Assembly (NCBI GenBank): GCA_964553045.1
Contig: CAZKJG010000016.1
Span: forward strand, 494 to 64,493
Length of the DNA stretch: 64,000 bases
Direction: 5' to 3'
From: an uncultured bacterium
Lineage (GTDB): Bacteria > Fermentibacterota > Fermentibacteria > Fermentibacterales > JCC-6
Positions within the stretch are counted from its first letter, which is position 1. Each line of letters begins with the position of its first letter. Below, one piece after another: positions 1 to 64,000 of this stretch. The position numbers and the translations under genes are program-made. The notes beneath the pieces are model-generated. The model did not search any database. It was not told where the DNA came from and saw only the letters and a list, made by a program, of their open reading frames with translations.

Positions 1-78
1 CCCAAAGAGTCCGCAGGTGCGTTCGATGCCCTGTCCTGCACAAATGTGAGAGAGCTGCGCGACCACTCGCGCCGGTAT

Positions 79-194
<116 letters not shown>

Positions 195-204
195 GTTCTT
201 CAGA

Positions 205-237
205 AGGCCCCCGGGCAAACGCCCGGGGGCCTTTTCT
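205..237 (+). terminator. Rho-independent terminator of the rRNA operon
   Basis: aaggcccccggg caaac gcccgggggcc followed by ttttct: a GC stem with a T-run immediately 3' of 5S. Confidence 0.7.
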
Positions 238-363
238 GTATGGGTGAGTCGATACCCCGGAATCGTGCGACTATTAGACTTGCGGCTGCTGCCGCCGGCG
301 GCTTAGACTTACCTGCAGGATCTGGCCGAGTTGGACGTCAACCCGAGACAGAGGGTGGATCAA

Positions 364-13518: not shown

Positions 13519-13570
13519 GGAACCGCCCTCAGGTATCCGGTGAAATCCGCTCTGGAAGACGACACTGGGA

Positions 13571-14686
13571 TCAGCGGCTGCCTGTGGCGATCATCGGCGC
13601 GACTGCGGTTTGCTCGCCCAGCTGCAGCCGGACCAGGTAGACACCTCCGGGGAGGGGAGCGCCGGAGGCGCTCAGGCCGTTCCAGCTCACGCTGTGGTTT
13701 CCGGCGGCGAGGGTCGCCCCCTCCATGGGGATCGCCACCAGCCTGCCGGAGACATCGTAGATCCCGAGCGAGACTACTCCCGATGTCGGCAGGGCGAACC
13801 CGATCTCCACCGGACCGGCAGAAGGGTTGGGTCGGCAGGAAGGAGGCTGAAGGAGATTTTCGGCCGAATCCACCTGCACCCCTGTGGGTCCGTATATCAG
13901 GCTGACGTACTCCGGATGGTCGATGAAGGGATTCCTGTTTTCCTGAATCTCGAATACGGCTTCGTTGCGGTCCAGCTCCTTCCCGCTGACGGGATCGGCC
14001 TCGTGCCATGACTGCAGCATCTCCCGGGCCCAGGGCGTGAGGACAGCCCCCTCCGCCATGGGACTGCCGGGCCAGCCGGCGTCCTCGTCCAGGTAGCGGG
14101 TGGCCATGTAGAAGTAGCCACGGGCCAGGTCACCCTGGAAGTCCACCCGCGGCTCGAACACGGTGCCCACATAGCCGGGAGCGCAGTTGGGCCCCAGCTT
14201 GCTTCCGTTCATGGATGTCCAGGTGGGCCAGTCCACCTCCCCGTACGGGTAGTTGCCGCGCCGCATGTTTACGTAGATGTCCGTGGGGATCACTACGAAC
14301 AGGTCCGTATACATGGGCATGACCTCGCCGCCGAACCAGCTTTTGGGCCAGCTGTGCTCGCGGTTGTAGCCCTCGCCCTCCCCGCTGGCGGTACCTCCCT
14401 GGTCCTCGCCGAACTCGTACTCGTAGGGCGGAGTTCCGCCGGGTATGTCGGAGTAGATGTCCCAGACCATGCCGCTGGGCTTGTCATCCGTTGTGTAGAA
14501 GGCTTCCCAGACATCGTCGTAGCTGATGGCCACGTGGTCGTCGATGATGTCGTGCAGGGCCTGCTGGAGTTCCTCCCCTGTAAGGCCCTCGGCGGAATCG
14601 TAGTAGCCCTCGGGGATCTCGGCCGCCGCCTGGCCGAGAACGGCCAGCAGCAGGATGGCCGTCCGGATGATCCATCGGTTGGGCAT
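13571..14686 (-). CDS. Extracellular endonuclease I family nuclease with T9SS C-terminal sorting domain
   Basis: Endonuclease I-like core (NREHSWPKSWF, NRNPFIDHPE). Signal peptide. C-terminal NPSAG...LGIYDVSGRLV...GVYLVRL CTD. Confidence 0.75.
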   Translation of the reverse strand: MPNRWIIRTAILLLAVLGQAAAEIPEGYYDSAEGLTGEELQQALHDIIDDHVAISYDDVWEAFYTTDDKPSGMVWDIYSDIPGGTPPYEYEFGEDQGGTASGEGEGYNREHSWPKSWFGGEVMPMYTDLFVVIPTDIYVNMRRGNYPYGEVDWPTWTSMNGSKLGPNCAPGYVGTVFEPRVDFQGDLARGYFYMATRYLDEDAGWPGSPMAEGAVLTPWAREMLQSWHEADPVSGKELDRNEAVFEIQENRNPFIDHPEYVSLIYGPTGVQVDSAENLLQPPSCRPNPSAGPVEIGFALPTSGVVSLGIYDVSGRLVAIPMEGATLAAGNHSVSWNGLSASGAPLPGGVYLVRLQLGEQTAVAPMIATGSR

Positions 14687-14789
14687 GTCGCGGGGACTCC
14701 CTTCCCGGCGGCTGAATTGGAGGTTATGGCAGAAAGCTGTCACCCCACGATCATACCACAGGAGGTGGAAGTCGCAAGTAAGGCGCTCC

Positions 14790-17246
14790 TCACTCCCCCA
14801 GGTGCGTCTGAAGCCACCTGTCGGTCTCCCACAGCAGGTGCAGTACCGACTCCCGGGCGCGGTAGCCATGACCCTCCAGCGGGAGCATCACCAGCCGCGC
14901 GGTGCCGCCCAGTCCCTTCAGGGCCTCGTAGAGCCTCTCGCTCTGCATCGGATAGGTGCCGGAGTTGCTGTCCTCCTCCCCGTGGATCAGCAGGAGCGGC
15001 TCGTTGATTCCGTCGGCGTGCATGAAGGGGGACATCTCGAAGTAGACGTCCGGCGCCTCCCACAGGGAGCGGTCCTCGGACTGGAAGCCGAAAGGGGTGA
15101 GGGTCCTGTTGTAGGCCCCGCTCTGGGCGATCCCCGCGGCGAAGAGGTCGGTATGGGCCAGGAGGTTCGCGGTCATGAAGGCCCCGTAGGAGTGTCCGCC
15201 CACGGCGATCCGGTCCGGGGCTGCCACCCCCATGGACACCGCCTGGTCCACCGCGGCCCGGGCGTTGGCCCTCAGCTGGGGAACGAAGCTGTCGTTGGTC
15301 TGAGCTCCGCTGTCGGCCACGATGGGCATCGAGGGGCTCTTCATAACCGCGTAGCCCCGCAGCAGCCAAACCAGGGGTGACCACCAGCCCACCCGGTCGA
15401 ATCGATGGGGAGATGTGCGGACCTGGCCGGCGGCATCGGCGCTGGCGTACTCCTGGGGATAGGCCCACATGACCATGGGCAGCGGGCCGTCGAAGACCGA
15501 GTGCCCCGGCGGCAGATAGACGACTGCCGACATGGGAAGCCCGTCTTCCCGCTCGTAGGTTACCAGCTGCTTTTCCAGACCGGCCAGCTGGGGCGTGGGA
15601 TGCGGAAAACGGGTCAGGGTGTCCAGGTCCGCCGAATCCAGATCCCGGGCGTAGTAGTTTGGGGGCTGGTTGGCGGATTCCCGTCTGGTGAGGAGGACCT
15701 CCAGCGAGTCATCGAGGAACATGATCGGGCGCTCGAACCATGGTGGCCGGGAGCGGAACAGCTCGCCGACCTGCCCCGATTCGAGGCTCATTCTCCTGAG
15801 AAAGGGCCGGTCGCCCTCGGGCGTAGCGCCGTCACCGCGGAAGAATATCCACTCTTCGGTCGGGTCGGTGACCAGGACCTCGCGGCCGCGGGAGTTACGG
15901 CGGGTCAGGGGCTCGCCGGGATCGGCGTAGGCGTCTTCAAAGCTGTACTCAAGCAGCAGCCTCCCACCCTCCGGTTCGGCGGGGGGCAGCAGCCACAAGC
16001 GGGAGGTTCTGGTTGGCCACCACCACTCCGACAGCAGCGAAAGGCTGTCGCTGCACCAGGTCAGGCCTCCGTAACGGAGTTCCGTTCTGGCCAGCGTGTC
16101 CGGCGGGCCGTCAAAGGGGGCGGACAGAATGAGAACCCTGTCCCGCAGCTCCGCGTCCGCGGATGCATCGCCGCCGTCCATGGCCTCCACCCAGCACAGC
16201 GCGGCGTCGGCATCTGCCCTCCAGTGGAAGCTGCGGGGCCCCGGGGCGACGCTTCCGAAAGCGATGGGTATCTCCTCCTGCAGCGGAAGGTCCGCAACTG
16301 TTCTTACCGCGTTTCCCGAGCTGTCCAGAATCCGAACCAGCTGTGGAAAGCGGTATGCGGGAACGCTGTACGACCATGGACGCTGAAGGGTCGAGACCAG
16401 GAGGTATCTGCCGTCGGGGGAGGAGGTGAAGAACCAGATCTTCTCCGGGCCGAAGAGCCTCTCCACCGAACCGTCCATGCCCACCCGGCAGAGCACGGAG
16501 GTCATGTGGTGGTCGAAGAGCCTTCCGTCATGGGGGGTCTTGAGAAGATCGGCGTAGGTTCGGGCCGGGGCGGTGGCTCCCCGGGACTCCCTGACCACCG
16601 GGCCGGCCGGTACGTCGGAAGGCTCGGGGCCCGGCCCCCGCTCGTCGGGGACCATGCAGCAGATGATGGACTCCCCGTCCGGGGCCCACTGGGGAAACTC
16701 GCTGGCCGCCAGGCTGAGGCGGGGTCCGGTCAGGCGCCTGGCGCGCGCGTCGGCCGATTCCACCAGCCAGAGCTCGCCTCCCGAGGGAGTCATGCGGATC
16801 ACGAGCAGCGAGGTCCCGTCCGGCGACCACTCCGGATGCGTAAGCCACGAGCCCTCCGGGAAGCCCCGCACTTCACCGGCGAATCCGCCATCCATGCTGC
16901 GAATCTCCATGGAGCTGAAGTACCATTGCCTGGTGGGTGCGTTCCGGTCCACGTCTATTCTCAATCCCGCAAGCTCCGCCTCATCCACGGCCAGGTCTTC
17001 TATGGGAGGGTTGACCACCGGGTGCATCAGCAGAATCCATCTTTTTTCGGGCGATATGCGGACCCAGGGCGAACGGGGCGCGTCCACGACCTCCGCCAGC
17101 TCCTCCGGGGGAAGCCGGTAGAGGGGAATGGAATCGGAATCGACGGTTGTACCCGTAAGGCAGATCAGCGCCGTTGCCGCCGCGGCAGGGATCAAGGCCC
17201 ACCTCCATGGCTCTTTGGGGTAACGCTCACAAGTCCAGGGGAACAA
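14790..17246 (-). CDS. S9 family serine peptidase (beta-propeller plus prolyl-oligopeptidase-like alpha/beta hydrolase)
   Basis: GGHSYGAF nucleophile elbow, C-terminal LLIHGEEDSN...LEGHGY catalytic region, long N-terminal propeller. Start codon uncertain. Confidence 0.85.
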   Translation of the reverse strand: MFPWTCERYPKEPWRWALIPAAAATALICLTGTTVDSDSIPLYRLPPEELAEVVDAPRSPWVRISPEKRWILLMHPVVNPPIEDLAVDEAELAGLRIDVDRNAPTRQWYFSSMEIRSMDGGFAGEVRGFPEGSWLTHPEWSPDGTSLLVIRMTPSGGELWLVESADARARRLTGPRLSLAASEFPQWAPDGESIICCMVPDERGPGPEPSDVPAGPVVRESRGATAPARTYADLLKTPHDGRLFDHHMTSVLCRVGMDGSVERLFGPEKIWFFTSSPDGRYLLVSTLQRPWSYSVPAYRFPQLVRILDSSGNAVRTVADLPLQEEIPIAFGSVAPGPRSFHWRADADAALCWVEAMDGGDASADAELRDRVLILSAPFDGPPDTLARTELRYGGLTWCSDSLSLLSEWWWPTRTSRLWLLPPAEPEGGRLLLEYSFEDAYADPGEPLTRRNSRGREVLVTDPTEEWIFFRGDGATPEGDRPFLRRMSLESGQVGELFRSRPPWFERPIMFLDDSLEVLLTRRESANQPPNYYARDLDSADLDTLTRFPHPTPQLAGLEKQLVTYEREDGLPMSAVVYLPPGHSVFDGPLPMVMWAYPQEYASADAAGQVRTSPHRFDRVGWWSPLVWLLRGYAVMKSPSMPIVADSGAQTNDSFVPQLRANARAAVDQAVSMGVAAPDRIAVGGHSYGAFMTANLLAHTDLFAAGIAQSGAYNRTLTPFGFQSEDRSLWEAPDVYFEMSPFMHADGINEPLLLIHGEEDSNSGTYPMQSERLYEALKGLGGTARLVMLPLEGHGYRARESVLHLLWETDRWLQTHLGE

Positions 17247-17386
17247 GTATTTTTGAGCGTATCGATGACGTCAACTGAAACGGTCTCGGAGTGGAATACT
17301 CCGCGGGTATTCCCCGGAACCCAAGCCCGGGCTGTTGCCTGTCATGGTCCGGATATCGGGTATCTCAAGACGGTTCCGTACCGCCC

Positions 17387-18970
17387 CTACTCCGGCGGAG
17401 CCGGAAGCGGTGTGAGGAAGTAGTCTCTATCGCCCGCCAGGGGACGGGCTCCTCCCCTGGCTGGATCGTATCCCAGCGTGGGGTCGCAGCCGGGGCGGTC
17501 GAACAGCGGCGCGTCGGCCGCTAAGGCGTACCTGTTGTAGGTGTCGACATCCCAGGTAGTGCAGAGTGCCTGGTAGGGAAAAGCCTCCGGATCCTGCCAG
17601 GCCAGCCCCTCCACGTTCCCGTGCATGTAGATGCCGGCGGCCCTCTCGTGCTCGGGGTCCATTCCGTCGCCGATTATCAGGATCACGTGGTTCACCGGCT
17701 CTGTCAGGCGAGCGCATCCGGCAAGCACAGAATAAAGATGTGTGTTGTCCACAATCCCTTCCACAGCGGGCGCCGGCGGCGTGCCCTCGCAGCTTCGAAG
17801 CAGCTCCAGGGCCCGCTCGGGGCCGGCGGCGGCAACGCTGACCAGCTCGTTGGTATGCACCTTGCAGCCCCATGTGACCTGGGCGTTGGGATAGGTACGA
17901 TTCGGGTCCTCGCCCTCCATTGCCGGAAGCTCACCCCTACCCAGGGGGTTGTTCATGGCCAGTCGCATGTATCCGTTTGAATGGTCGGAGGTGACCAGCA
18001 CGAGCGTGTTCTCCCGGCTCAGGGCGGCGGAGGTGTCGATGTAGCCCATCACATCGTCCACCGCTGTCTCCAGGTCCCACATGGAGCCGATCATCCAGTG
18101 GTAGTTGTTGTTGTGGCTGGCCCAGTCGATGTCCCCCTGCTCGAGCACGAGGAAGAAGCCCTGGTCGTCGCGGGAGAGGTAGTCCAGAGCGGCAACCGCC
18201 GTCTCCGCCAGAGTCGGGTTCTCCTCTGTGACCGGTTCGACCGCGCCGGTGCCATCCCCGGCGGGGACGGGCGGCTCGAAGCACCCCTGAGCCCCGCCGA
18301 AGAGACCGAACACGCCGACTCCGTCATCTGGGTCGAGGCCTTCCACCGCTTCGGCGAGGAGTACCGCCCCGTCCATGCCCACTGTCCGCTCGGCCAGTAC
18401 GTAGCGCGTATCCCCCCGGACCAGCCTGTCGTAGTACTCGCGGGAGATGTGACCCCTGGAGTTGCTCCAGTCCGGGTTCTCCCAACCCGGGTGTCCGGCG
18501 CCGACTATCAGGTCCGCCAGGCCTCCTTCTATCATCTCTTCGGAAATGCCGGGTCCCGTACGCCCCTCGTAGCCGTCGTAGTAATGGTTGCGGTCGGGGC
18601 TGTGGGCCACGAAACAGGCCGGAGTGGCGTGGCAGAAGGGAACGGTGGATGCCACCCCCACGGCCCATCCCAGGGAGTCACAGCGCTCGCCCAGGTTGGC
18701 AAGTGCTCCGTCGGGCGGGTCCCCGGCCTCCCAGCAGACGTTGCCGGCCTCGGTCTTCTCGCCGGTGGAGATGGCCGTGCCTGCGGCCGCCGAATCGGTG
18801 GCCGGTATCCTTCCGTCCCCGACGTTCTCTTCCCCGGCCTCGGTTCCTTCGGCCGCGGAATCGGACGGCGTCTGCCCGTCGGACTCGCCACACGCCGCCG
18901 AGAGCATGAGCACGGCGGCCGTCAGGAGGGATGCACCATCTGCCCGCAGACCTTTCCTGCCGCACATCAT
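17387..18970 (-). CDS. Alkaline phosphatase family lipoprotein
   Basis: DSAAAGTAISTGEKTEAGNV active-site motif and LVTSDHSNG metal site. Lipobox LMLSAAC. Confidence 0.8.
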   Translation of the reverse strand: MMCGRKGLRADGASLLTAAVLMLSAACGESDGQTPSDSAAEGTEAGEENVGDGRIPATDSAAAGTAISTGEKTEAGNVCWEAGDPPDGALANLGERCDSLGWAVGVASTVPFCHATPACFVAHSPDRNHYYDGYEGRTGPGISEEMIEGGLADLIVGAGHPGWENPDWSNSRGHISREYYDRLVRGDTRYVLAERTVGMDGAVLLAEAVEGLDPDDGVGVFGLFGGAQGCFEPPVPAGDGTGAVEPVTEENPTLAETAVAALDYLSRDDQGFFLVLEQGDIDWASHNNNYHWMIGSMWDLETAVDDVMGYIDTSAALSRENTLVLVTSDHSNGYMRLAMNNPLGRGELPAMEGEDPNRTYPNAQVTWGCKVHTNELVSVAAAGPERALELLRSCEGTPPAPAVEGIVDNTHLYSVLAGCARLTEPVNHVILIIGDGMDPEHERAAGIYMHGNVEGLAWQDPEAFPYQALCTTWDVDTYNRYALAADAPLFDRPGCDPTLGYDPARGGARPLAGDRDYFLTPLPAPPE

Positions 18971-48440: not shown

Positions 48441-48591
48441 ATATGGAAATTCCCCTTATCGCTTGATTCGCATGTCTTTAGAGATGGAATCCCGAAATTG
48501 GCCGAGTAGACTGGTGGTGTCCGTCCTGCTGGGGGTTGTGCATATTGCGGGCTGGATTCCAGGCGCTTGCGGCGGACGGGGGTAATAAACC

Positions 48592-49479
48592 ATGGCAGAC
48601 CAGCCAAGGGTTCCCGCCAGGGTCATGGCCCTGCTGGCCGTCGTCCTGTGGTCCACCGCCGCCTCTGCCTTCAAGCTGACGCTCCGCTACCTCTCCCCCT
48701 ACATGCTCCTGTTGCTGTCCTCGGCCGTTTCGCTGGCCGTACTCTGGGGGCTGGATCTGGCCAGGGGCGGGGGCCGGTCGCTGCAGGGCCGGTGGGCGGC
48801 CCTGCGCGGCCTGATGAACCCATTCCTCTACTACCTCGTGCTGCTCACTGCCTACGACCGGCTTCCGGCCCAGATAGCCATGGTGATCAACTACCTCTGG
48901 CCCATAATGCTGGTCCTGCTCTCGATACCCGTTCTCGGTCAGAGGATCGGGCTGGCGGGCATTGGAGCGGTACTGGTGAGCTTCAGCGGAGTGGTCGTGC
49001 TGGCCATGGGGGCCGGAGGCGACCTCTCCGGAGCCGGTCTGGGCCCGATGCTGCTGGCGCTTCTCAGCACTGTAATCTGGGCCGCCTACTGGCTTCTGAA
49101 CATGAAGAGCCGCGGCTCGGGTGTCTCCGCTCTCAGGGGGAACTTCCAGTGGGGAATGATCTACCTGCTCGCGTACGGACTTCTCACCGGCGAGCTGAGG
49201 GTCCCGGTTCTCGAGGGCGTGCTCGGAGCCGCATACGTTGGTCTTTTCGAGATGAGCCTTACCTACGTGGTCTGGCTGTCCGCCCTCTCCCATGCCCGGA
49301 CCACGGCAGAGGTGAGCAGCATGATCTACCTGACGCCCTTTCTCTCCCTTCTGGTCATAGCAGTATCGGTGGGGGAGAAGATAAGTCCATGGACGGTCGC
49401 CGGGCTGGTTCTGGTGATAGGGGGAATAGTACTGGAGAGGGGCCTGGGGCGGGTTGGCGCAGCCGTGGGCCGGCGTTAG
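48592..49479 (+). CDS. DMT superfamily (EamA-like) transporter
   Basis: Ten-TMS profile with two EamA-like halves. Confidence 0.8.
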   Translation: MADQPRVPARVMALLAVVLWSTAASAFKLTLRYLSPYMLLLLSSAVSLAVLWGLDLARGGGRSLQGRWAALRGLMNPFLYYLVLLTAYDRLPAQIAMVINYLWPIMLVLLSIPVLGQRIGLAGIGAVLVSFSGVVVLAMGAGGDLSGAGLGPMLLALLSTVIWAAYWLLNMKSRGSGVSALRGNFQWGMIYLLAYGLLTGELRVPVLEGVLGAAYVGLFEMSLTYVVWLSALSHARTTAEVSSMIYLTPFLSLLVIAVSVGEKISPWTVAGLVLVIGGIVLERGLGRVGAAVGRR

Positions 49480-49524
49480 CTTGCCGATGGATGATGGGGC
49501 GGTCTCACACGGAGGAGGGAGAGG

Positions 49525-50592
49525 ATGGTGCTGGCAGCTGCTGCGGTTCTGGCGCTGGCGGTCGGGCCGGCTGCGCTGGAGTGCGAGATTCTGGACAGCG
49601 TTCGCGTGGACATGGGCTACGGAGCGGCCTTTCAGGTGCTGTGCCTGGGGGCCGGACCCACCGGCGGAGTGGCGGCAGGTGGCGTCACCGGCGAAGGCGT
49701 GGACTACATGAGCCGAGCCTTCACCGTGGGCCTCGGCTCCGGCTGGAACGTGCAGTGGAGCGGTATTGCCGAGGGGGTGAACTCGGGCTGGATCTCCTCG
49801 GTAAGCCCCTCCTGGGACGGCGGATGCATCTGCGGCGGGGCCACAGACTACTCGCCCGGTGACCAGGGCGACGCCTGGGTGGTGGCTCTGGACCCCGGGG
49901 GGTTCGTCCGGTGGCAGCACCATCGTGAGGGCGAAAGCGAGCTTTCAGAGGTGTCGTGGGTGTCCGGGTCGCACATGCGCTCCCTGGCCGCAGGATACAC
50001 CCATGACCAGGCCGGAAGGCCCCGGTCATGGCTTCTGAGGCTGGACGACGCCGGCAGGGCCACCTCCAGAAGCGAAGTGGACCTGGACGGCTTCAAGGTG
50101 CTGGGCGCTTGCTCCACCTTCGCCGGAGAGACGGTGATGGTGGGCTCCCGCTACGGAGCGGCCGCCGCGGTGATGGTGGACGGCGAGGGCGGGACGGCAT
50201 GGACCGACCCCGCCATCGTGGAGGGGGCCCTGGGGACCGTGGAGGAGTGCGAGGGAGGATTGCTGTCCGGTGGCCACGCCTACGCAGACGGCGGCGACCC
50301 GCTGCTCTGCCTTCACTCCCGGCTGGGGGGCAGCCGATGGGTACGCAACCTCGCCGAGGACGGTTACTCGGGCAGCGTATTGGACCTGGCGCCCATTCCC
50401 GGAATTGGCAGCGCGCTGGTCATTGCCGGTTCTCCGCGTCTGGTCGTATGCGATCTGCAGGGCAAGCCCCTGGGAGAGGTTGATCCGGGCTTCCGTCCGT
50501 CGGCGGTGGCCGCCCTGGAGGACGGCACCCTGGCGGTTGCCGGCAGCGGCATGGGCGAGGTGCGACTGGCGCGGCTGCGCATCACCCGGTAA
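49525..50592 (+). CDS. Hypothetical secreted protein
   Basis: Signal peptide (AAAVLALAVGPAALE). Gly/Ser-rich, no known domain recognised. GGAGGAGGGAGAGG SD. Confidence 0.5.
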   Translation: MVLAAAAVLALAVGPAALECEILDSVRVDMGYGAAFQVLCLGAGPTGGVAAGGVTGEGVDYMSRAFTVGLGSGWNVQWSGIAEGVNSGWISSVSPSWDGGCICGGATDYSPGDQGDAWVVALDPGGFVRWQHHREGESELSEVSWVSGSHMRSLAAGYTHDQAGRPRSWLLRLDDAGRATSRSEVDLDGFKVLGACSTFAGETVMVGSRYGAAAAVMVDGEGGTAWTDPAIVEGALGTVEECEGGLLSGGHAYADGGDPLLCLHSRLGGSRWVRNLAEDGYSGSVLDLAPIPGIGSALVIAGSPRLVVCDLQGKPLGEVDPGFRPSAVAALEDGTLAVAGSGMGEVRLARLRITR

Positions 50593-50628
50593 AAAGGGGA
50601 CGGAGGTCTCGCCCTCCGCCCCGCCTGT

Positions 50629-51126
50629 CTACACGAGGTCGAGGAGCCACCGCTTCAGCAGGCTTCCGGCCAGCGTCAGAATCCCCGCCGCCCCCATCAC
50701 AACCACAACCGTGGCCACGTCCCACGGGTTCAGCAGGAAGGCCATGGCCAGCCCGGACGCGGGGGGGTGCTCGGTGTCGGTGACGGTCATGACGAAAAGC
50801 GATACGGCCACAGCTGCCGCCCCGGCCACCGCCCTCCAGACGGTCCATTCGGTCCCGCAGGAGGTGAGGGCGGAGACCGTGAGCATACTGAGGATGCCGC
50901 AGGCGGCGCCCACGGCGTAGCCCCCCAGGACTGCCCTGGGCGCCGCGGAGTAGGAGTTCGGGGCGGCGAAGACGATGAAGGCGCTGGCCCCCAGGGAGGC
51001 GATGATGGCCGTCTGCTGCACCGTGTCCAGGAGCATGAGGACCACGAATATCACGGCTCCCGCGGCCAGGCTCTGCCAGATGTACCGGAACACGTGATGG
51101 CGCAGGCCCGTGTCCAGGAATCTCAT
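50629..51126 (-). CDS. HPP family membrane protein
   Basis: Four-TMS profile with HPP motif. The long 5' extension of the ORF-track entry is GC-frame artefact. ATG at 51126 overlaps the M16 stop (ATGA). Confidence 0.65.
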   Translation of the reverse strand: MRFLDTGLRHHVFRYIWQSLAAGAVIFVVLMLLDTVQQTAIIASLGASAFIVFAAPNSYSAAPRAVLGGYAVGAACGILSMLTVSALTSCGTEWTVWRAVAGAAAVAVSLFVMTVTDTEHPPASGLAMAFLLNPWDVATVVVVMGAAGILTLAGSLLKRWLLDLV

Positions 51127-56165: not shown

Positions 56166-56351
56166 ACGTCTTCCCTTTCGTTAATGGGCTGTATGTCTCA
56201 TCACGGTACGCAACGAATACGATTACGCAACTTCAGCCTCGGTCAAGCCCACCGCCGACGGAGGGGCATTGACACGGAGCGCAGCGACTCTGCAGCCTAG
56301 ACGAAGCGACGATGCTGGCCGGGCCCATGAAGAGAAGGCGGGAGCAATGTG

Positions 56352-56912
56352 ATGGGCGCCCTGGAAGAGCTGCAGTGCTCCAGGTGTGGAAGCGTCGACC
56401 TGGAAGAGGTCTCCCCGGATCGGTTCAGATGCACCTACTGCGGCTGCTACCTGCAGCGCGACGTTCCGGAAGCGAACCTGACCGTCGACCACCGCAGGTG
56501 CCCCGAGTGCGGGCAGGTGAACGAACCCCACGCCAGCTACTGCGGGCGCTGCGGCTTTCGAATGGTCAGGGCCTGTCCACGCTGCGCCCATCTGTTTCGC
56601 TGGGACATGACATGCTGCCCCAGATGCGGTTTCCGACAGGACCCCGACGAGCGGTTCGTCTGCCTTCTGCAGGGCGGTCTGGGTCAGTTCTGGGTGCTCA
56701 CCAGCAAGAAGCTGTATCACAGGGTCACCAATGCGCTCGTGGAGGTCTTCGAGTCGGTTCCGCTGGAAAGCGTGAAGAGGGTCCGCTACAGGAAGGGCAT
56801 ATTCTCCAACAAGCTGAAGGTCTTCCGCAATGGTGGCCGGAACATGGTTATTCTCTCCGACGGCAACGAGCAGATGTACCGCCACCTGCGGGAGTTGACC
56901 GAATCCGGATGA
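56352..56912 (+). CDS. Multiple zinc-ribbon protein with C-terminal PH-like domain
   Basis: Five CxxC pairs (CSRCG, CTYCG, CPECG, CGRCG, CPRCA, CCPRCG) then a beta-rich about 80-aa domain. Confidence 0.5.
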   Translation: MGALEELQCSRCGSVDLEEVSPDRFRCTYCGCYLQRDVPEANLTVDHRRCPECGQVNEPHASYCGRCGFRMVRACPRCAHLFRWDMTCCPRCGFRQDPDERFVCLLQGGLGQFWVLTSKKLYHRVTNALVEVFESVPLESVKRVRYRKGIFSNKLKVFRNGGRNMVILSDGNEQMYRHLRELTESG

Positions 56913-56976: not shown

Positions 56977-58269
56977 ATGGACGATGCTCTGACCAGGATA
57001 CTGTGCACCGGCGACATACACATGGGCCGGGTGCCATCCGCACTTCCCGAGGATGCCGGCGTCAGAAGGCACAGCGCCACCAGCGCGTGGAGGGGCCTGG
57101 TCGACGAGGCGGTCGAGCGCCGCGTACACGCGGTGATCCTGACAGGCGACATCGTAGACCGCGCTAACCGATCCTACGAGTCCATCGGCCCCCTGGAGGC
57201 CGGGCTGCGCATGCTCGCCGAGGCGGGAATCCGCGCTTTTGCGGTGGCGGGCAACCACGACTTCGATGTCCTTCCCCGGCTGGCGGATGTTCTCGAGCCC
57301 GGCCTGCTGACAGTGCTGGGCCGGGGGGGCAGCTGGTCGGAGGAGCCCCTGGTCCCCGACGGGAAGACCGCTCCCCGCCTGGTCATCCGCGGCTGGTCGT
57401 TCCCCGCGCAGCACGTGTCCAGCTCACCGCTTTCAGACCTTCCGGAGGTCCGCTACGACCTGCCCGTCATCGGGGTGATGCACGCCGATCTGGACGCGCC
57501 CGGCAGCAATTACGCCCCGGTGGCAAGGGCGGAGCTCTCGGGCAGAGGAGTGGGAACCTGGCTTCTGGGCCATATCCACAAACCCTTCCGCGGCAGGACG
57601 GATACCGGTGAGATGTACCTGTACCCCGGCTCACCGCAGCCGCTCGATCCCGGAGAGGACGGCAAGCACGGTCCCTGGCTGCTGGAGGTCGGCCCCGAGG
57701 GCGAGGTGGAAGCCGGCATGCTGCCCCTGGCCACCGTCCGATACGACAGCGTCGAGGTTAGCATGGAGGATGCAGAGAGCGAGTCGGAAGTCAGGGAGCG
57801 CCTCATTAGCGCCATTGCCGATGCCGGTGCAGACGGGGACGCTTCCGGCCGGGTCGAGCACCTGGTGCTCCGGGCGGTCCTGGTCGGACGCACCACCCTG
57901 CAGCGCAGGCTCCGGGAGATCACCCGGGGCGCCAGCGATGATCTCAGGATGGAGTCCGGAGACGCCTCGGTGTCCCTGGAAAGGGTACTCTTCGATACCC
58001 GCCCCGCCCATGACCTCCGGCGGCTTGCCGAAAGGAAGTCCCCCGTCGGGATACTGGCCCGCTGGATCATGGCCCTGGAGGGCGGCGGGCAGACACCGGA
58101 GGCGCGCGGGCTCCTGGAGGCGGTGGAGCAGAAGATCGGGGAGCTGCGGGGGTCCCGCGTATGTGCTCCGGTCCGCGAACACCTGGATGGGCTGAAAATC
58201 GCCGACCTGGCCAGAAGGCAGGCGCTGCTGCTTCTCGACGAGCTGCAGTCCCAGATCGGGGGGGAGTAG
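56977..58269 (+). CDS. SbcD/Mre11-like calcineurin-type metallophosphoesterase (DNA repair exonuclease family)
   Basis: Phosphoesterase motifs I-IV (LCTGDIHMG, GDIVDR, GNHD, GHIH). C-terminal helical extension. Confidence 0.75.
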   Translation: MDDALTRILCTGDIHMGRVPSALPEDAGVRRHSATSAWRGLVDEAVERRVHAVILTGDIVDRANRSYESIGPLEAGLRMLAEAGIRAFAVAGNHDFDVLPRLADVLEPGLLTVLGRGGSWSEEPLVPDGKTAPRLVIRGWSFPAQHVSSSPLSDLPEVRYDLPVIGVMHADLDAPGSNYAPVARAELSGRGVGTWLLGHIHKPFRGRTDTGEMYLYPGSPQPLDPGEDGKHGPWLLEVGPEGEVEAGMLPLATVRYDSVEVSMEDAESESEVRERLISAIADAGADGDASGRVEHLVLRAVLVGRTTLQRRLREITRGASDDLRMESGDASVSLERVLFDTRPAHDLRRLAERKSPVGILARWIMALEGGGQTPEARGLLEAVEQKIGELRGSRVCAPVREHLDGLKIADLARRQALLLLDELQSQIGGE

Positions 58270-58272
58270 CGC

Positions 58273-61200
58273 GTGGGCCGCGAAAGCCCGACGCTGTTGC
58301 AGCTGCGAATCATCCGGATGCCGGGCTTCCCCCGCGCACAGTCCTTTGCGCTGGATGAGCTGGTGCCGGGCATCAACGTCCTGTACGGACCCAACGAGAT
58401 AGGCAAGACAACGGTTGCCGATGCCATCGGAATGCTGCTGCACGGCCGGCCCGGAGGCGGGCGCGAGGAGCTGGAGGCGCTGGTCGGGATCGGGGAGGAC
58501 TGCCGTGACGTGGTCTACATCAACGGCGGGTTCGACCCCGAGCCTCCCCACCGGCTGCCCGCCGACCACACCCGCTACCGGCTCAGCCTGCATGAGCTGC
58601 TGCAGGCCGGGGACCCCAACCGCAGCTTCGCCGAGCTCGTCCTCCGGGAGTCGGCCGGAGGCTGCGACGTCCGTGGCGCCGGAGAGGCGCTGGGGTTCAG
58701 GGAAGCACCTCCATCCACGAACATCGGCGAGTACACCCGGTACAGGACCTGCAGGAACAGGCTGAAGGAGGCCAGGAGCAGCGCCGAGGACCCCCGACGC
58801 CTGGAGGATGAGCTGCAAGGCCTCCAAAGCGAGAAGAGGGAGGTACAGAGAGAGTCGGAGACCGCCGACGCCCTCGAGGTCGCACTCGAGTACGCAGGGC
58901 ACTCCTCCGGGCTGAACAGCCTGCGCAGCGAGCTGGATGCGTTGCCCGATCCGCTCGAGTCCATGACGGGCGACGAGGCCGACCGGCTGAAGGCCCTCAG
59001 GAAGGAGTGCAAGGCTCTCGAGAGGGAGCTCGAAGAGGCCGAGGGCACTCTGGCCGATGCGCAGCGGGAGATGGAGCGGACCGGCCTGTCCGGCGCCGTT
59101 CCCCGCAAGCTGCTCAAAGAGCTTGGCGGCAAGGTCGAAGCCATGAAGCAGATCAGCAGGGATATCGACTCGCTTCAGCGCAGGCTCGGCGGCCTGGAGG
59201 GGAAGCTCAGGGAGACGGAGAAGACACTGGGTGACACGGTAGACCCCGCCGCCCTCGGTAGGGTAGATGTCGCTCTTGTCGACCGGGCCGGAAAGGTGGC
59301 CCGCAGACTGGCCGGCCTTCATGCAAGCGAGGAGGAGCTTCGAGCGGTAACCAGGATTCAGTCCGGCGACTCACCCGAGGTGGACGCCGACGAGCTCAGG
59401 GATGCCGGACGCGCCCTGAGACGCTGGCTGGCGTCGCCGGAGCCGCGACGGTCCGGCAGACGGACGTTAGATCTTGCCGGCGCCGCTCTGGCCGTAGTGG
59501 CCGGTATGGGCGGAATAGCGCTAACGATTTTCGGCAAGACCGGATGGCCCGCCGCCGTGGTCGGGGCCGCGGCACTGGCAGCAGGTCTGATCCTCGTCTC
59601 CGGTTTCCTGACAGGGCGCCCGGAAACCGACAATCGCCCCGTCTACCGCGGCGAGTTCGAGCGCGCCGGGGTCGAGCCCCCCCGGAGCTGGAGCCGGGAT
59701 GGGGTCTCGGACCGCCTCGACGAGCTGGAGAACTCCCTGGCCGGGGCTCGCCTGGCGGAGAGGTGCCGAAGCAGCAGGGAGCGGATAGAGCGGGAGATCG
59801 CGAAGCTCAGAGACGGGCTTGAGGACGAGGCCGGTCGTCTCTCGGAGCAGGTGGGAGCTCCCATTACGGGTAACGGTGAAGGGTTTCTCTCGCTCGTTGC
59901 GAACCTCAACAGGTGGCAGGAGGTCCGCGCCGACAAGATCGGGGTGGAGGGTGAGCTGGAGGAAGCCCGTAAGCAGTACCTGGAGCTGGCCCACGAGGTC
60001 TCGGAGGCTCTCGTCCCGTACGGCTTCGATTCCTCCGAAGACCTGCAGGCCCTCAATGCCGCAGTCGGGGACCTCTCCGAGAGGGCAGATACATACCGGA
60101 GGGGAATGGACCGCAGGGAAAACGCCGAAAAGGACAGGGCCCGCGCCGAAGACCGCATGAAGGCGAAAGAGGGGGAGATGGCGGACCTCTTCGAGAGGCT
60201 CGGACTGAAGGACGGGGACGAGGCCGGCCTAAGGCGGCTCTGCGGACAGGTGGAGAAGTACAACTCCCTTCGGGAAGAGGCGAGCAAGGCCTCCACGCTG
60301 GCCGAGGCGTCTCTACGCAGGCTCAAGGACATGCCCGGCTGCGAGCCGAAAATGGCCGACCTCGACGAGGCCACCCTGGAGCTTCGGCTTGGCGAGCTGG
60401 ACGGTTGCGGCAGCCGCCTCAAAGAGCTGAATGAGGAGATTCCGACCCTGCAGGAACGGATACGACAGGCCAAGCAAAGCCACGAGATCGAAGACGCCCT
60501 CGGGTCTCTGGACGGTGCCAGGCACGACCTTGCGCTCAGACTGGAGGAGCACGCCGGGAAGATGGCGGGGTGGGCCGTGGCGGAGACCCTCATGGAGGCG
60601 ACCAGGGACTCCAGCCGCCCGAAGGTGTTCCATCGGGCTGCGGAGCTGCTGGCCGACTTCACCAGGGGCCGCTGCGAGCTGAGATTCGACGAAGGCGGGA
60701 GTCCGGAGTTCCGGGCGCGGGACACCGTTCATCGAACCACCAAGGGCCTTGACGAGCTGTCCTCCGGCACCAGGGTCCAGCTGCTGATGGCCGTCAGGCT
60801 GGCCTTCGTGGAGCGCGAGGAGAGAGGCGCCAGGCTGCCGGTGGTTTTCGACGAGGCTCTGGCCAACAGCGACCGCGCCAGGGCGGAGGCGACAATCGGG
60901 GCGATGATCGACACCGCCCGCAGTGGCCGGCAGGTCTTCTACCTCACCGCCCAGGAGGATGAGGTGTCCAAGTGGAAGGCGGCCCTGGAGGGCTGCGACG
61001 ATCCCCCCGAGCATCGGTTCATCGACCTCGCCCGGGTCAGGAAGCTCCAAGATGCAAGAAGGGCTCCAGCCCTGCAGCCGGTGCCGGTGGATGCCCTTGC
61101 CGTCCCCCCACCGGAGGGAAGGGGCCACGCCGCATACGGCAGCCTCCTCGAAGTGCCGCCGTTCGATCCTTCGGCCGAAACCGGCGCCGCTCACATCTGG

Positions 61201-61737
61201 TACGTGGTGGATGACCCTGATACGCTCTACGACCTCCTCCACAGCAGGGGCATTCAGCGGGTGGGACAGCTGCGATCCCTGGCCAGGCTGGCAGGAGCCG
61301 GTGATGGCCTTTTCCCCTCGGCTGAAGCGCGGGACAGGGCGCTTGCCCTGGCGGAGGCCCTGGACGCGTACAGGCTGGCCTGCATGGAGGGCAGGGGCAG
61401 GAGGGTGGACAGGTCTGTACTGGAGGACGCCGACGGGGTCACCTCAACCATGCTCGACAGGGTCGCGAAGAAGGCCCGGGAATGCGGCGGGGATGCCCGC
61501 AGGCTGCTCGATGCCCTGGAGAACGGGGAGGTCCCCGGCTTCAGAGCGGACAAGCGCCGCCAGCTTCAGAGCTACCTCGGGAGTGGGGGATACCTTCCGG
61601 CCACCGAGCCGCTTCGGCCCGACGAGATAAGGGTGCGGGTGCTCCGGTCGGTCCGTAAGCGTATAGAAGACGGCACTCTCGATCCGGATGACGTGTACGC
61701 CCTGCTGAAACGCGCGGCGGCTTCCTCGGGAAGTTGA
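58273..61737 (+). CDS. SbcC/Rad50/YhaN-like AAA ATPase with coiled coil and about 290-aa C-terminal extension
   Basis: N-terminal Walker A GPNEIGKTT. Long coiled-coil middle. Signature LSSGTRVQLLMAVRLA, Walker B/D-loop VVFDEALANSD at about aa 820-860, then a further about 290 aa. GTG start after GGGGGAG. Confidence 0.75.
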   Translation: MGRESPTLLQLRIIRMPGFPRAQSFALDELVPGINVLYGPNEIGKTTVADAIGMLLHGRPGGGREELEALVGIGEDCRDVVYINGGFDPEPPHRLPADHTRYRLSLHELLQAGDPNRSFAELVLRESAGGCDVRGAGEALGFREAPPSTNIGEYTRYRTCRNRLKEARSSAEDPRRLEDELQGLQSEKREVQRESETADALEVALEYAGHSSGLNSLRSELDALPDPLESMTGDEADRLKALRKECKALERELEEAEGTLADAQREMERTGLSGAVPRKLLKELGGKVEAMKQISRDIDSLQRRLGGLEGKLRETEKTLGDTVDPAALGRVDVALVDRAGKVARRLAGLHASEEELRAVTRIQSGDSPEVDADELRDAGRALRRWLASPEPRRSGRRTLDLAGAALAVVAGMGGIALTIFGKTGWPAAVVGAAALAAGLILVSGFLTGRPETDNRPVYRGEFERAGVEPPRSWSRDGVSDRLDELENSLAGARLAERCRSSRERIEREIAKLRDGLEDEAGRLSEQVGAPITGNGEGFLSLVANLNRWQEVRADKIGVEGELEEARKQYLELAHEVSEALVPYGFDSSEDLQALNAAVGDLSERADTYRRGMDRRENAEKDRARAEDRMKAKEGEMADLFERLGLKDGDEAGLRRLCGQVEKYNSLREEASKASTLAEASLRRLKDMPGCEPKMADLDEATLELRLGELDGCGSRLKELNEEIPTLQERIRQAKQSHEIEDALGSLDGARHDLALRLEEHAGKMAGWAVAETLMEATRDSSRPKVFHRAAELLADFTRGRCELRFDEGGSPEFRARDTVHRTTKGLDELSSGTRVQLLMAVRLAFVEREERGARLPVVFDEALANSDRARAEATIGAMIDTARSGRQVFYLTAQEDEVSKWKAALEGCDDPPEHRFIDLARVRKLQDARRAPALQPVPVDALAVPPPEGRGHAAYGSLLEVPPFDPSAETGAAHIWYVVDDPDTLYDLLHSRGIQRVGQLRSLARLAGAGDGLFPSAEARDRALALAEALDAYRLACMEGRGRRVDRSVLEDADGVTSTMLDRVAKKARECGGDARRLLDALENGEVPGFRADKRRQLQSYLGSGGYLPATEPLRPDEIRVRVLRSVRKRIEDGTLDPDDVYALLKRAAASSGS

Positions 61738-61786: not shown

Positions 61787-62137
61787 ATGGCATCATCGGC
61801 CAAGGGAAACAGAGCGATAGGCATCGTCATCCGGCTACCCGTCAATATCACCAAGAAGGAAGAATGGGTGATAGCCACCTGTCCGGCTCTGGATGTCAAT
61901 ACTCAGGGCAGGAGCTGCGCTGAGGCCAGAAAGAACATGGAGGAGGCTCTCTCGCTATTTCTTGAGTCCTGCCTTGAGAGGGGTGTTCTCAACGAGGTGC
62001 TCAGAGGTGCCGGATTCACAAAAGTAGAGAGTCCTGTCCAGAACGGACCCCAGCAAGACAGCGGGTCTTTCGTGGAGGTTCCCCTGTCGCTGCTGAGAGG
62101 TAAGAAGGCCGACCGCTCGGCAAAATGCCCCGTCTGA
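61787..62137 (+). CDS. HicB-like antitoxin (UPF0150 family)
   Basis: IVIRLPVN...WVIATCPALDVNTQGRSCAEARKNMEEAL pattern of HicB-like antitoxins. 13-nt overlap with the downstream toxin-like gene. Confidence 0.6.
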   Translation: MASSAKGNRAIGIVIRLPVNITKKEEWVIATCPALDVNTQGRSCAEARKNMEEALSLFLESCLERGVLNEVLRGAGFTKVESPVQNGPQQDSGSFVEVPLSLLRGKKADRSAKCPV

Positions 62138-62388
62138 CCCCGATACACTGGAAGACCCTGGAATGTGTATTTACAAAATTCGGGTTCTGCTACAAACGCC
62201 ATAGGGACAGTCACAGAATATACGAGAAGCTCGGCAGCCCCAGACCGATCGTTAATCCCACATACGAGCAGATTCAGGTGGAGATTATCAGGGGTCCCAT
62301 GGGAACTGCAGGGATGTCCCGCAAAAAGTACTTCGAGCTGCTTGAGATCTGCTGGGATACACAGCTGCCGCCTGTTCGCAGGGTTTGA
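62125..62388 (+). CDS. HicA/YcfA-like mRNA interferase toxin
   Basis: About 87 aa with FGFCYKRHRDSHRIYEK (compare HicA GF...R..GSHR.Y). Paired with the HicB-like gene. Confidence 0.55.
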   Translation: MPRLTPIHWKTLECVFTKFGFCYKRHRDSHRIYEKLGSPRPIVNPTYEQIQVEIIRGPMGTAGMSRKKYFELLEICWDTQLPPVRRV

Positions 62389-62442
62389 TTTGACAGGCGT
62401 CAAGGACCGGGTAGTCCAATGCGCCCGGGGAAGTGTCCATGC

Positions 62443-63408
62443 CTACTGGCCGTTTCGGTGCCGCTGCACGTTCAGAGCCTTCCATCGCAGAAGCGGATGA
62501 TCCTGAATGCGCGCAGCCAATTCTGCATCTTCGGTCAGCAGGCCGGGGACGATCTCACCATGGTCCAGCAGGCGATCCAGGAACTCGGCTTCGTCAGGTG
62601 TGAATTGTGCCTGAGCAGCCATGCGCTCGCGGCAGGTCTCGACCATCTGCTTCGCCCACCCAGGCTGAAGAGATTCTCGGACGGTTATGCTCAAAACCGG
62701 CAGAAGTTGGTTCTCCAATTCGTGAGGATCGCATTCTACGTCGTCCACCGAGATGGTCCGCCAGTCGCGGCGGTTCATGGCTCCGTAGAGGATGAAGGCA
62801 AGCCGCAAGCGGCCAGGATCGAGTTTCGCGGCGGTCAACAGCCGGTGTGCATCGTACACGTCCCTGCTGGCCCGGCGTGCAAACAGCGCCGCCAGCTTGC
62901 CAGCCGCCAGTTCGTGCATATCGAGAACGGGGATACCGCTAGCGGAGTACGTGCCCACATCCGCTGAGTCCATCGATGTCATGGGCCATAGCAGGACGCG
63001 GAACATGAAATTCAGATCGACTTCCAGGTTTCCGCCACCGCCAAGGGCGCTGTCGTAACGCAAGCGCCATTTGCCGCCCGCATGGTCACTGGGTATGCGC
63101 GTCACGGACAGTTCCTCCCGCTGGCAGACGACCTGCACGGTGCTCTCGACCTTCTCTCGGTCAGCCAGCATCTCCTCTCGGTCAGCCGCGCCAACGTAGT
63201 TCAGGTCGATATCAACCGACAGGCGCGGCAGGTCGAAGCAGAACAGGTTGAGCGCGGTGCCGCCTTTCAGTGCGAAGCGAGCACCAAGCGCCGGATGTCG
63301 CTGGAACACAGTCAGGAGATTGAGCAGGTGGATGACCTTCTCCAGCACCTCCGGTCGGAAGCCAGTCGCCTCGGATTCGGCCATAAGACGTTCTCGTGAT
63401 ATTCTCAA
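62443..63408 (-). CDS. AbiEii/AbiGii-family nucleotidyltransferase toxin (type IV TA)
   Basis: ALKGGTALNLFCF...LSVDIDLNY nucleotidyltransferase motifs typical of AbiEii (DUF1814). TTGA overlap with the upstream AbiEi-like gene; alternative ATG at 63384. Confidence 0.7.
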   Translation of the reverse strand: MRISRERLMAESEATGFRPEVLEKVIHLLNLLTVFQRHPALGARFALKGGTALNLFCFDLPRLSVDIDLNYVGAADREEMLADREKVESTVQVVCQREELSVTRIPSDHAGGKWRLRYDSALGGGGNLEVDLNFMFRVLLWPMTSMDSADVGTYSASGIPVLDMHELAAGKLAALFARRASRDVYDAHRLLTAAKLDPGRLRLAFILYGAMNRRDWRTISVDDVECDPHELENQLLPVLSITVRESLQPGWAKQMVETCRERMAAQAQFTPDEAEFLDRLLDHGEIVPGLLTEDAELAARIQDHPLLRWKALNVQRHRNGQ

Positions 63409-64000
63409 ATCTCACGCTCCCACGCCCGCGTCAGCACCTTTTCGGGGACAATCAGGTTCCAGTTCGTAACCAACTGTCCTGGATTCCCTCGATCCATGTA
63501 GTGGGGTTGACGAGGGCGGGCCTCTCGCAGCCTGGCGAGCTGCCAGTCTTCCACCATGAGTTCCCCATGATGCTGTTCGAGGAAGAAGCCGACCTTTGCG
63601 ACGGTTGTGGCGTTCCGCAGGAGCAGCGCATATTCGACGATCTGCTGGATGTCGTAGTATTCCACGGACTCGGCGGAACGCCAGATCTCCTCCCAGCCAC
63701 CCCCGAGGTCTGGCCGGTCGAGCACGTCCACCAGAGACCGTTCCAGAGATGTGACCCTGATGTCGTGCCCGAGGCGGTCGACTGTCTTAACTCCAAACAG
63801 CTCCCCTGCTTCTCTACGTAGAGCCTTCTGCGGTGAGACGCGACGGAAGTGGCAGCCCCGAAAATCTTTAGGCCGCATCGCCTTATTGCTGATTATGATG
63901 TACTCGCTTGACACTGTGTATGCGCGTCCGTGCAACTGGAAGGCCGAGTGATAAGCGATCACGGCATCCTCGGCCAGCTTGGAGGCGACCAGCCATGGGT
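63405..64000 (-). CDS. AbiEi-like antitoxin/transcriptional regulator, 5' end beyond the window
   Basis: C-terminal domain pattern of AbiEi-family proteins, directly upstream of and overlapping the AbiEii gene. The ORF runs to the window edge. Confidence 0.55.
   Translation of the reverse strand, partial: PWLVASKLAEDAVIAYHSAFQLHGRAYTVSSEYIIISNKAMRPKDFRGCHFRRVSPQKALRREAGELFGVKTVDRLGHDIRVTSLERSLVDVLDRPDLGGGWEEIWRSAESVEYYDIQQIVEYALLLRNATTVAKVGFFLEQHHGELMVEDWQLARLREARPRQPHYMDRGNPGQLVTNWNLIVPEKVLTRAWEREI

Follow-up and report, generated by a model that had tools for sequence, protein, structure and literature searches.

We examined a 64,000-nt stretch of DNA, hereafter called the window, from an uncultured bacterium of the Fermentibacterota (contig CAZKJG010000016.1, positions 494 to 64,493 of the forward strand), in which two adjacent open reading frames (ORFs) encode a predicted Mre11/SbcD-type nuclease and a predicted Rad50/SbcC-type ATPase (Table 1). 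A preliminary description of this DNA had given the positions of both ORFs exactly and in the same direction, and had recognized them as an SbcD-like phosphoesterase and an SbcC/Rad50-like ATPase of the YhaO/YhaN type, with which the motifs, the predicted fold, and the profile matches agree. Because only 3 nt separate the nuclease stop codon from the GTG start of the ATPase gene, and a GGGGGGAG ribosome-binding site lies ahead of this GTG, the two ORFs form one translationally coupled operon. Both can be taken as real genes, as the numbers of homologues found (1178 for the nuclease, and 63 full-length homologues for the ATPase with E values from 1e-28 down to 0) are far beyond chance. The arrangement is also constant: in each of the 50 non-redundant loci where upstream DNA is available, the nuclease gene directly precedes the ATPase gene and overlaps it or is coupled to it. 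Overall, the molecular identity of the pair is secure, the nuclease being of the Mre11/SbcD type and the ATPase of the Rad50/SbcC type, both in the YhaO/YhaN (SbcF/SbcE) branch, and by analogy the pair is predicted to function as a DNA-end recognizing and cutting machine of the SbcEF/YhaNO kind.

All five phosphoesterase motifs (DxH, GD, GNH[DE], H, and GHxH) are present in the nuclease, and the residues D13, H15, D58, N93, H94, H169, H199, and H201 are kept in at least 95% of 121 homologues. The Pfam Metallophos match is above the cut-off (E 1.4e-11), and the closest sequence matches in the PDB are Mre11/SbcD (E ~1e-5). The curated scores of NCBIfam were missed, both for sbcd (34.3 bits, cut-off 77.65) and for Mre11_Halo (43.7 bits, cut-off 550), and the NCBIfam Mre11/SbcD matches are weak and confined to the N-terminal part of the protein. 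None of the PADLOC models matches the nuclease.

The full-length AlphaFold2 (AF2) model of the ATPase, built from a 54-sequence alignment with a predicted local distance difference test (pLDDT) score of 80, shows a head split in the classic manner, with two long helical arms connecting its halves. Foldseek searches with this model returned condensin/Smc5-6, Rad50 of the MRN complex, MukB, JetC, and E. coli SbcC (E 1e-11 to 3e-4), and the ascending arm was also matched by full-length SMC, Rad50, and MukB structures. Besides those of Walker A, the signature serine S830 (in LSSGT), the Walker B residues D860 and E861 (in VVFDE), and the D-loop aspartate D867 are invariant in the family, and the NCBIfam cut-offs for Rad50 and SMC are missed by wide margins. 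Two proteins served as comparators, namely SbcC of a canonical SbcCD pair from Planotetraspora (locus L006), which has a CxxC hook and an "IVSHV" H-loop, and a protein named "YhaN family protein" by PGAP from a Sphingopyxis plasmid (locus L095). In hhalign, the ATPase family matched the YhaN-family protein with a probability of 98% (E 1.5e-13) and canonical SbcC with one of 92% (E 6.6e-7), and by this profile comparison it stands nearer to the YhaN type than to SbcC. At the H-loop position, the window ATPase has A893 (nt 60949-60951), which aligns with the histidine of "IVSHV" in canonical SbcC and of "FFTHH" in the YhaN-family protein; alanine occupies this position in at least 90% of the family, and it may change the ATP-hydrolysis cycle.

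Table 1. Coordinates of the nuclease–ATPase pair, its predicted domains, the neighboring genes in the window, and the Shango and haloarchaeal AddAB-like genes beside homologous pairs at other loci (positions refer to the window unless a locus is given).
Feature	Nucleotide positions	Residues	Strand	Details
Nuclease ORF	56977..58269		+	430 aa, ATG start
Nuclease catalytic domain		~1-235		Mre11/SbcD-type metallophosphoesterase
Nuclease C-terminal half		~236-430		conserved within family
ATPase ORF	58273..61737		+	1154 aa, GTG start
ATPase N-terminal head half	58273..58722		+	AAA_23 1.7e-7, AAA_27 2.3e-4; AF2 beta strands 7-72
Walker A, GPNEIGKTT	58387-58413	39-47	+	G39, N41, G44, K45 invariant
Ascending coiled-coil arm	58723..59460	~151-396	+	AF2 long helices 151-387
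Hydrophobic helical hairpin at coiled-coil apex	59461..59610	397-446	+	AF2 helices 397-420 and 426-446
Descending coiled-coil arm	59611..60618	~447-782	+	AF2 helices 475-778; partial LmuB, JetC, and Rad50 coiled-coil matches
ATPase C-terminal head half	60619..61023	783-917	+	motif columns; hhalign to SbcC and YhaN-family protein
Pro-rich flexible linker	61024..61122	~918-950	+	~30 aa; P945 and P947 conserved
C-terminal all-alpha domain	61123..61737	~951-1154	+	~200 aa; positions include the stop codon
DZR protein (double zinc-ribbon)	56349..56912		+	187 aa; 64 nt upstream of nuclease ORF; Pfam DZR 1.6e-11
Foreign island, apart from the pair	61787..63962			HicB-like, HicA, AbiEii, AbiEi; Pfam, PADLOC, GC3
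HicB-like ORF	61787-62137		+	116 aa; outside the pair
Weak HicA	62125-62388		+	Pfam E 1.6e-4, below gathering cut-off
AbiEii	62443-63408		-	PADLOC 1.5e-106
AbiEi	63405-63962		-	PADLOC 7.8e-72, profile positions 81-263 of 265
Shango beside pair	L001 2739-8638			PADLOC
Shango beside pair	L003 13553-19408			PADLOC
Shango beside pair	L013 4150-9741			PADLOC
Haloarchaeal AddAB-like genes beside pair	L001 13778-20706			Halobacteriales contig (metagenome-assembled genome)
Haloarchaeal AddAB-like genes beside pair	L097 132-7026			Halapricum desulfuricans plasmid pHSR-Est01; HNH nuclease also beside pair
Haloarchaeal AddAB-like genes beside pair	L063 10887-18190			brine metagenome

The apex of the coiled coil is a two-helix hairpin at the tips of the arms in the AF2 model, and the hydropathy (KD19) of the window ATPase peaks here at 2.06 (residues 401-419) and 2.31 (residues 428-446). 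Strongly hydrophobic segments are present in 63 of the 63 full-length homologues, and only at 30-50% of the protein length, and a mid-protein CxxC occurs in a single one of them; the window ATPase itself has no CxxC zinc hook. Membrane insertion of the hairpin is predicted from this hydropathy, and the hairpin probably either tethers the complex to a membrane or zips the two arms together.

The C-terminal region of the ATPase is a further departure. The preliminary description had counted about 290 extra residues after the signature, Walker B, and D-loop region; the extension is real, and the arithmetic from the D-loop to the C-terminus holds (1154-867 = 287 residues), but approximately 50 of these residues still belong to the canonical head. 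Because the hhalign alignments stop at residue 892 with canonical SbcC and at residue 906 with the YhaN-family protein, 10-25 residues before the ends of the comparator proteins themselves, the true extension is placed at residues ~918-1154 (~237 aa). It begins with the Pro-rich linker, of which residues 923-951 have low pLDDT and lack secondary structure in both AF2 models, and continues as an all-helical domain that was predicted with confidence when folded alone (42-sequence alignment, pLDDT 92.7, predicted template modeling score 0.81, 12 helices). Conserved positions of this domain include Y955, HxWY (974-977), G998, GRGxxVDR (1040-1047), and F1090. No Pfam family matched the domain, and no fold match was found in the PDB (best Foldseek E 0.75) or among the viral proteins of BFVD (best E 0.62). 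The suggestion that the extension might correspond to a known YhaN C-terminus was not borne out, the extension being absent from the YhaN-family protein of L095. In a search of 1.84 billion cluster representatives (50% identity), a hidden Markov model (HMM) of the domain matched 1987 proteins, including 1464 at E <= 1e-30. Since nearly all complete matches are 1,150-1,220 aa long and carry the domain at the very C-terminus, it is a fixed and family-defining module rather than a local oddity. The domain is net acidic (mean charge -9; -2 to -11 in non-halophiles), which disfavors a DNA-binding role for the extension; judging from this charge, the tethered domain is most likely an adaptor or autoregulatory module.

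Literature searches turned up no published account of this sub-family, nor of a defense system that pairs an Mre11-like with an SMC-like protein, the 2009 paper on SbcE being the only one recovered, and no model for the sub-family was found in Pfam, NCBIfam, or PADLOC. As far as the literature and these family libraries show, it is a previously undescribed sub-family of Mre11-Rad50 relatives. The metallophosphatase systems of the DefensePredictor paper were also considered, and are unrelated to the pair.

The preliminary description had further placed the pair at the edge of a toxin-antitoxin (TA) and abortive-infection (Abi) island, with HicBA and AbiEi/AbiEii just downstream, and had taken an embedding among such genes as a ground for a defense function. 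The AbiEii, AbiEi, and HicA-like genes are indeed there, but the HicA match is weak and the presumed HicB ORF has no match in Pfam, PADLOC, or NCBIfam. The G+C content at third codon positions (GC3) is 0.82-0.83 in the pair, with a codon-usage Kullback-Leibler divergence (KL) of 0.06-0.11, compared with a GC3 of 0.80 +/- 0.05 in the core genes of the window, 0.66 in the HicBA-like ORFs, and 0.70-0.71 in AbiE; the overall GC content drops to 0.59 at 62-64 kb. HicBA and AbiE are thus clearly foreign, and the pair is compositionally native. The boundary of the island lies after 61.75 kb with the pair on the native side, because composition separates the pair from HicBA and AbiE, the gene order is kept in a relative with 90% identity, and the upstream genes are ordinary ones (an M16 peptidase, an aldehyde dehydrogenase, NrdD, AFOR, and a NuoF-like protein). 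The pair therefore adjoins the TA/Abi island but lies outside it, and the inference of a defense function from this position is not supported.

Immediately upstream of the pair, a double zinc-ribbon (DZR) protein is encoded. The order DZR-nuclease-ATPase is kept in locus L100, where the nuclease is 90% identical and the DZR gene lies at 37-597, and the DZR gene is not kept at the more distant loci examined; the DZR protein is possibly a lineage-specific member of the operon. Weak "Cas12f TNB" matches of this protein reflect only the zinc ribbon. Within the island, 13 nt are shared by the HicB-like and HicA ORFs, whose GC3 is lower than anywhere else in the window. The AbiEi ORF has an in-frame stop before the end of the window and seems either to lack its N-terminal (winged-helix) part or to have it out of frame, so that the AbiE module may be degenerate. 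Elsewhere in the window, positions 48481-50917 have an unusually high GC content (0.68-0.70) and several overlapping ORFs, and gene calls are uncertain there; one of these ORFs (48481-49923, minus strand, 481 aa) has no Pfam match and an atypical codon-position GC (0.79 at first codon positions, KL 0.39).

To place the pair in the context of its family, we compared 101 loci, which were obtained by looking up contigs, by a metagenome scan that used the HLWY and GRGxPVDR motifs as seeds, and from plasmid records; neighbors were searched with HMMs built from the first neighborhoods. The 71 loci with a complete ATPase fall into 50 clusters at 85% identity. Neighbor genes were called heuristically (longest ORF, GC3 filter) with some regions miscalled, and all neighbor counts are therefore approximate.

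The strongest recurrent neighbors in the family are genes of double-strand break (DSB) repair. AddB-like and AddA-like helicase-nucleases adjoin the pair in L001, L002, L007, L011, L063, and L097, and an AddA-like gene alone in L034, so that AddAB-like neighbors occur in ~7 loci, in several orientations and on scattered branches of the tree. LigD adjoins the pair in L040 and L054, and in L002 LigD and Ku are found 3 kb away. Three of the AddAB-like cassettes are haloarchaeal (Table 1), and because Archaea are reported to be without AddAB/RecBCD (bioRxiv 10.64898/2026.05.08.723854), these cassettes would have been acquired horizontally. A second type of neighbor is a complete Shango system, identified in L001, L003, and L013 (SngC E 1e-262 to 1e-269, SngB 8e-182, SngA 1e-84), which always abuts the pair in the same orientation, preceding it twice and following it once. 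Seven collinear genes in L001 comprise SngABC, the pair, and the AddAB-like genes. In a rough neighbor-joining tree of the ATPase, the copies linked to LigD form one clade, and those linked to Shango or to AddAB fall on widely separated branches, from which it follows that the Shango and AddAB juxtapositions arose repeatedly. No SngA, SngB, or SngC was detected among the window genes scanned with PADLOC and Pfam.

Other copies of the pair lie in evident defense surroundings. The Haloferax alexandrinus copy (L099) is located in a defense island with Tiamat, a DrmD-like/HKD-Snf2 protein, PDC-S01, and a pAgo/Piwi protein, the copy in L003 is next to an integrase and a type ISP restriction-modification enzyme as well as Shango, and the copy in L065 is next to GmrSD. 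Nine haloarchaeal plasmids carry the pair. Approximately 10 of 91 smaller flanking proteins match PADLOC models (CARF-PIN, WYL, LmuB/C, DpdF, MADS, and AriA), and the Pfam families of these 91 are mostly assorted metabolic and housekeeping ones. Most of the 50 loci likewise have ordinary metabolic neighbors, with neither Shango nor AddAB-like genes nearby in 40 or more, and no relative of the pair was found on the viral contigs of IMG/VR.

Several individual neighborhoods deserve mention. In plasmids of Haloarcula and Natrinema (L094 4762-15477 and L096 1921-12477), the nuclease and ATPase genes end a same-strand block of four genes, which begins with genes for an "ATP-binding protein" of ~1230-1285 aa and a hypothetical protein of 562 aa; neither of these first two genes was matched by PADLOC or NCBIfam. 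In L013, genes for ThiF (E1-like), Prok-E2_E, and Multi_ubiq are located 2 kb downstream of the pair (16605-18695, minus strand) alongside a UvrD/M78 protein, DUF4365, and RhuM, and the region looks like a defense island with a ubiquitin-like conjugation system. In L007, which is of actinobacterial type, two WYL/WCX (PafB/PafC-like) regulator genes (13549-15647) follow directly after the ATPase gene, and the AddAB-like genes are upstream. The occurrence of WYL among the smaller neighbors (3 of 91) hints at regulation in response to DNA damage.

We favor, with a probability of about 0.6, the interpretation that the pair is a native accessory DNA-end processing complex, serving in repair or surveillance, and not a part of the HicA/AbiE island. 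By analogy with Mre11-Rad50 and SbcCD, a (nuclease)2(ATPase)2 complex would assemble, and ATP-driven engagement of its two heads would clamp DNA ends and present them to the nuclease. The apex hairpin would provide the membrane tether or the zipper between the arms, and the acidic helical domain on its ~30-aa Pro-rich linker would hang from the head as an adaptor or autoregulator. The predicted biological outcome is the processing or destruction of free DNA ends. The coupling to AddAB-like and LigD genes, the native composition in the window, and the housekeeping neighbors in most loci suggest repair or resection; the patchy cross-domain spread, the carriage on plasmids, the copies in defense islands, and the thrice-independent link with Shango keep a defense role plausible. 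The two roles are not exclusive, as RecBCD/AddAB and SbcCD each serve in repair and also form a barrier to linear DNA of foreign origin.

A number of observations weigh against the favored interpretation. The family is patchy, with members in at least seven bacterial phyla and on plasmids of haloarchaea that share only 30-40% identity; it has been transferred between domains, and such a patchy, domain-crossing pattern is typical of accessory or defense genes and not of core repair. Three unrelated lineages have Shango abutting the pair, some copies are located in clear defense islands, and in the window the pair does touch the Abi/TA island. Furthermore, the loss of the H-loop histidine could mean weak or altered ATP hydrolysis, and membrane insertion of the hairpin is a prediction from hydropathy. 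A rival interpretation is a stand-alone two-gene anti-phage or anti-plasmid system, in which a membrane-tethered nuclease would destroy incoming linear ends and the C-terminal domain would sense or gate activation. The location at the edge of the AbiE/HicA island, the patchy distribution across domains with its nine plasmid copies, the defense-island copies (L003, L099, and L065), and the PADLOC matches among the smaller neighbors are in keeping with such a system, and with a membrane anchor the complex would be positioned at the entry point of foreign DNA. We nevertheless regard it as possible but unlikely, given that the pair itself has only partial PADLOC matches, the window copy is compositionally native and outside the island, the commonest specific neighbors are repair genes, the neighbors are ordinary metabolic genes at most of the 50 loci, and none of the relatives is on an IMG/VR viral contig. 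A bolder version, which we consider doubtful, is a mobile, membrane-tethered immunity machine that destroys DNA ends, in which the hairpin would hold the complex at the entry site, the C-terminal domain would dock motors, and the pair would provide the nuclease that Shango lacks and/or cooperate with horizontally spread AddAB-like enzymes, among them those of haloarchaea.

It is improbable that the pair works only in combination with a partner motor, either Shango SngABC or AddAB-like, to which it would be an effector or accessory, with the window copy an orphan or its partner encoded elsewhere. The full set of SngA, SngB, and SngC genes is adjacent and co-oriented on three distant branches with differing gene order, the collinear seven-gene array of L001 unites both candidate partners with the pair, AddAB-like genes accompany the pair even in haloarchaea, which reportedly lack AddAB, and the acidic tethered domain could be a docking module. 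However, neither partner lies near the pair in 40 or more of the 50 loci, Shango has been shown experimentally to be sufficient as a three-gene system (bioRxiv 10.1101/2022.11.11.516204), and adjacency may merely reflect shared residence in defense or repair islands. Very improbable, finally, is a function away from DNA ends altogether, as a membrane-associated SMC-like ATPase whose phosphoesterase acts on nucleotides, signaling molecules, or RNA. Calcineurin-like phosphoesterases are catalytically versatile, the curated cut-offs for Mre11, SbcD, and Rad50 are widely missed, the H-loop histidine is lost, and the C-terminal domain is acidic rather than basic; yet, by sequence and by structure, every best match is to Mre11/SbcD or to Rad50/SMC, the architecture of the gene pair is that of SbcCD and SbcEF, and the recurrent neighbors (AddAB, LigD, Ku, and the Shango helicase) all act on DNA.

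Mre11-Rad50 and SbcCD are among the best-studied DNA-end machines, whereas their relatives of the YhaN/YhaO type are almost unstudied. The analysis defines a large sub-family of these relatives, comprising ~2,000 clusters (50% identity) in many bacterial phyla and on haloarchaeal plasmids, which departs structurally in three ways: its coiled-coil apex is hydrophobic, its H-loop histidine is lost, and it carries a new tethered domain without a known fold relative. If membrane anchoring and partner docking are true, the sub-family would show how an end-processing machine is localized and regulated, and could offer a testable lead on how the mechanistically unexplained Shango kills phage DNA; its interest would increase further if the coupling to Shango or AddAB proves functional. 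For the window, we suggest that the pair be annotated as an SbcEF-like DNA-end nuclease complex, not as Lamassu or Gabija, and not as part of the AbiE/HicA island.

Among known defense systems, Lamassu (LmuB), Gabija (GajA), and Wadjet (JetC) resemble the pair in combining SMC/ABC-type ATPases with nucleases, but they do not use an Mre11-type phosphoesterase, as the window pair does. The preliminary description had proposed a defense system of the Lamassu/Gabija class. In PADLOC, the ATPase matched LmuB (8.9e-17) over residues 495-845, covering coiled coil and signature (profile positions 271-524 of 611), JetC (3.8e-7) over the coiled coil, GajA (1e-5) over the P-loop at residues 16-59, and AriA likewise over the P-loop only. 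No LmuA/LmuC, GajB, or JetA/B/D genes were found at the locus with PADLOC, no GajB (the UvrD-type helicase of Gabija) anywhere in the window, and no Toprim domain, which GajA has, in the ATPase. With only these partial P-loop and coiled-coil matches, no match for the nuclease, and no partner genes, the proposal was abandoned, and membership in Lamassu, Gabija, Wadjet, or PARIS is rejected. Shango, which adjoins homologues of the pair in three unrelated lineages, consists of SngA (TerB), SngB (ATPase), and SngC (helicase) and itself lacks a nuclease; the pair is not homologous to SngA, SngB, or SngC, and both systems are predicted to be membrane-associated, Shango through the TerB domain and the pair through its hairpin.

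SbcCD and Mre11-Rad50 share with the window pair the combination of a nuclease and an ABC-type ATPase, the long antiparallel coiled coil, and the catalytic and ATPase motifs. They differ in that the window ATPase has neither the zinc hook nor the H-loop histidine and possesses an extra C-terminal domain, and canonical SbcC of L006 aligns with the window ATPase only across the C-terminal head half. With hook and H-loop histidine absent and the curated cut-offs missed, membership in canonical SbcCD is rejected. The AddAB neighbors of the window family resemble the arrangement in B. subtilis, which has an addBA-sbcDC operon.

The closest likeness is to SbcE/SbcF (YhaN/YhaO). Here too, the phosphoesterase gene is directly upstream of the gene for the SMC-like ATPase, and a Walker A of the G-x-N-x-x-GK-T/S type is common to SbcE/YhaN and the window ATPase. 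Homologues of the ATPase are labeled "YhaN" in the sources, and several carry precomputed PF13514 annotations; in the window ATPase, Pfam AAA_27 reaches 21.3 bits against a cut-off of 22, at the P-loop only. The window family adds the linker and the ~200-aa helical domain after the head, whereas the YhaN-family protein of L095 ends 10 residues past the aligned head and keeps the H-loop histidine that is alanine in the window family. B. subtilis YhaN is 963 aa long. Given the size of its heptad regions described below, this length would leave no room for the extension. The window family is not confined to Gram-positives and is present in many Gram-negative phyla and in haloarchaea. Like the window ATPase, B. 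subtilis SbcE/YhaN is without a CxxC hook and has a hydrophobic central domain, which is insoluble and located between heptad regions of ~300 aa (Krishnamurthy et al., PMC2811018). Its partner is YhaO/SbcF, and it is reported to contribute to DSB repair and to competence and to form foci at the cell poles (PMC2811018).

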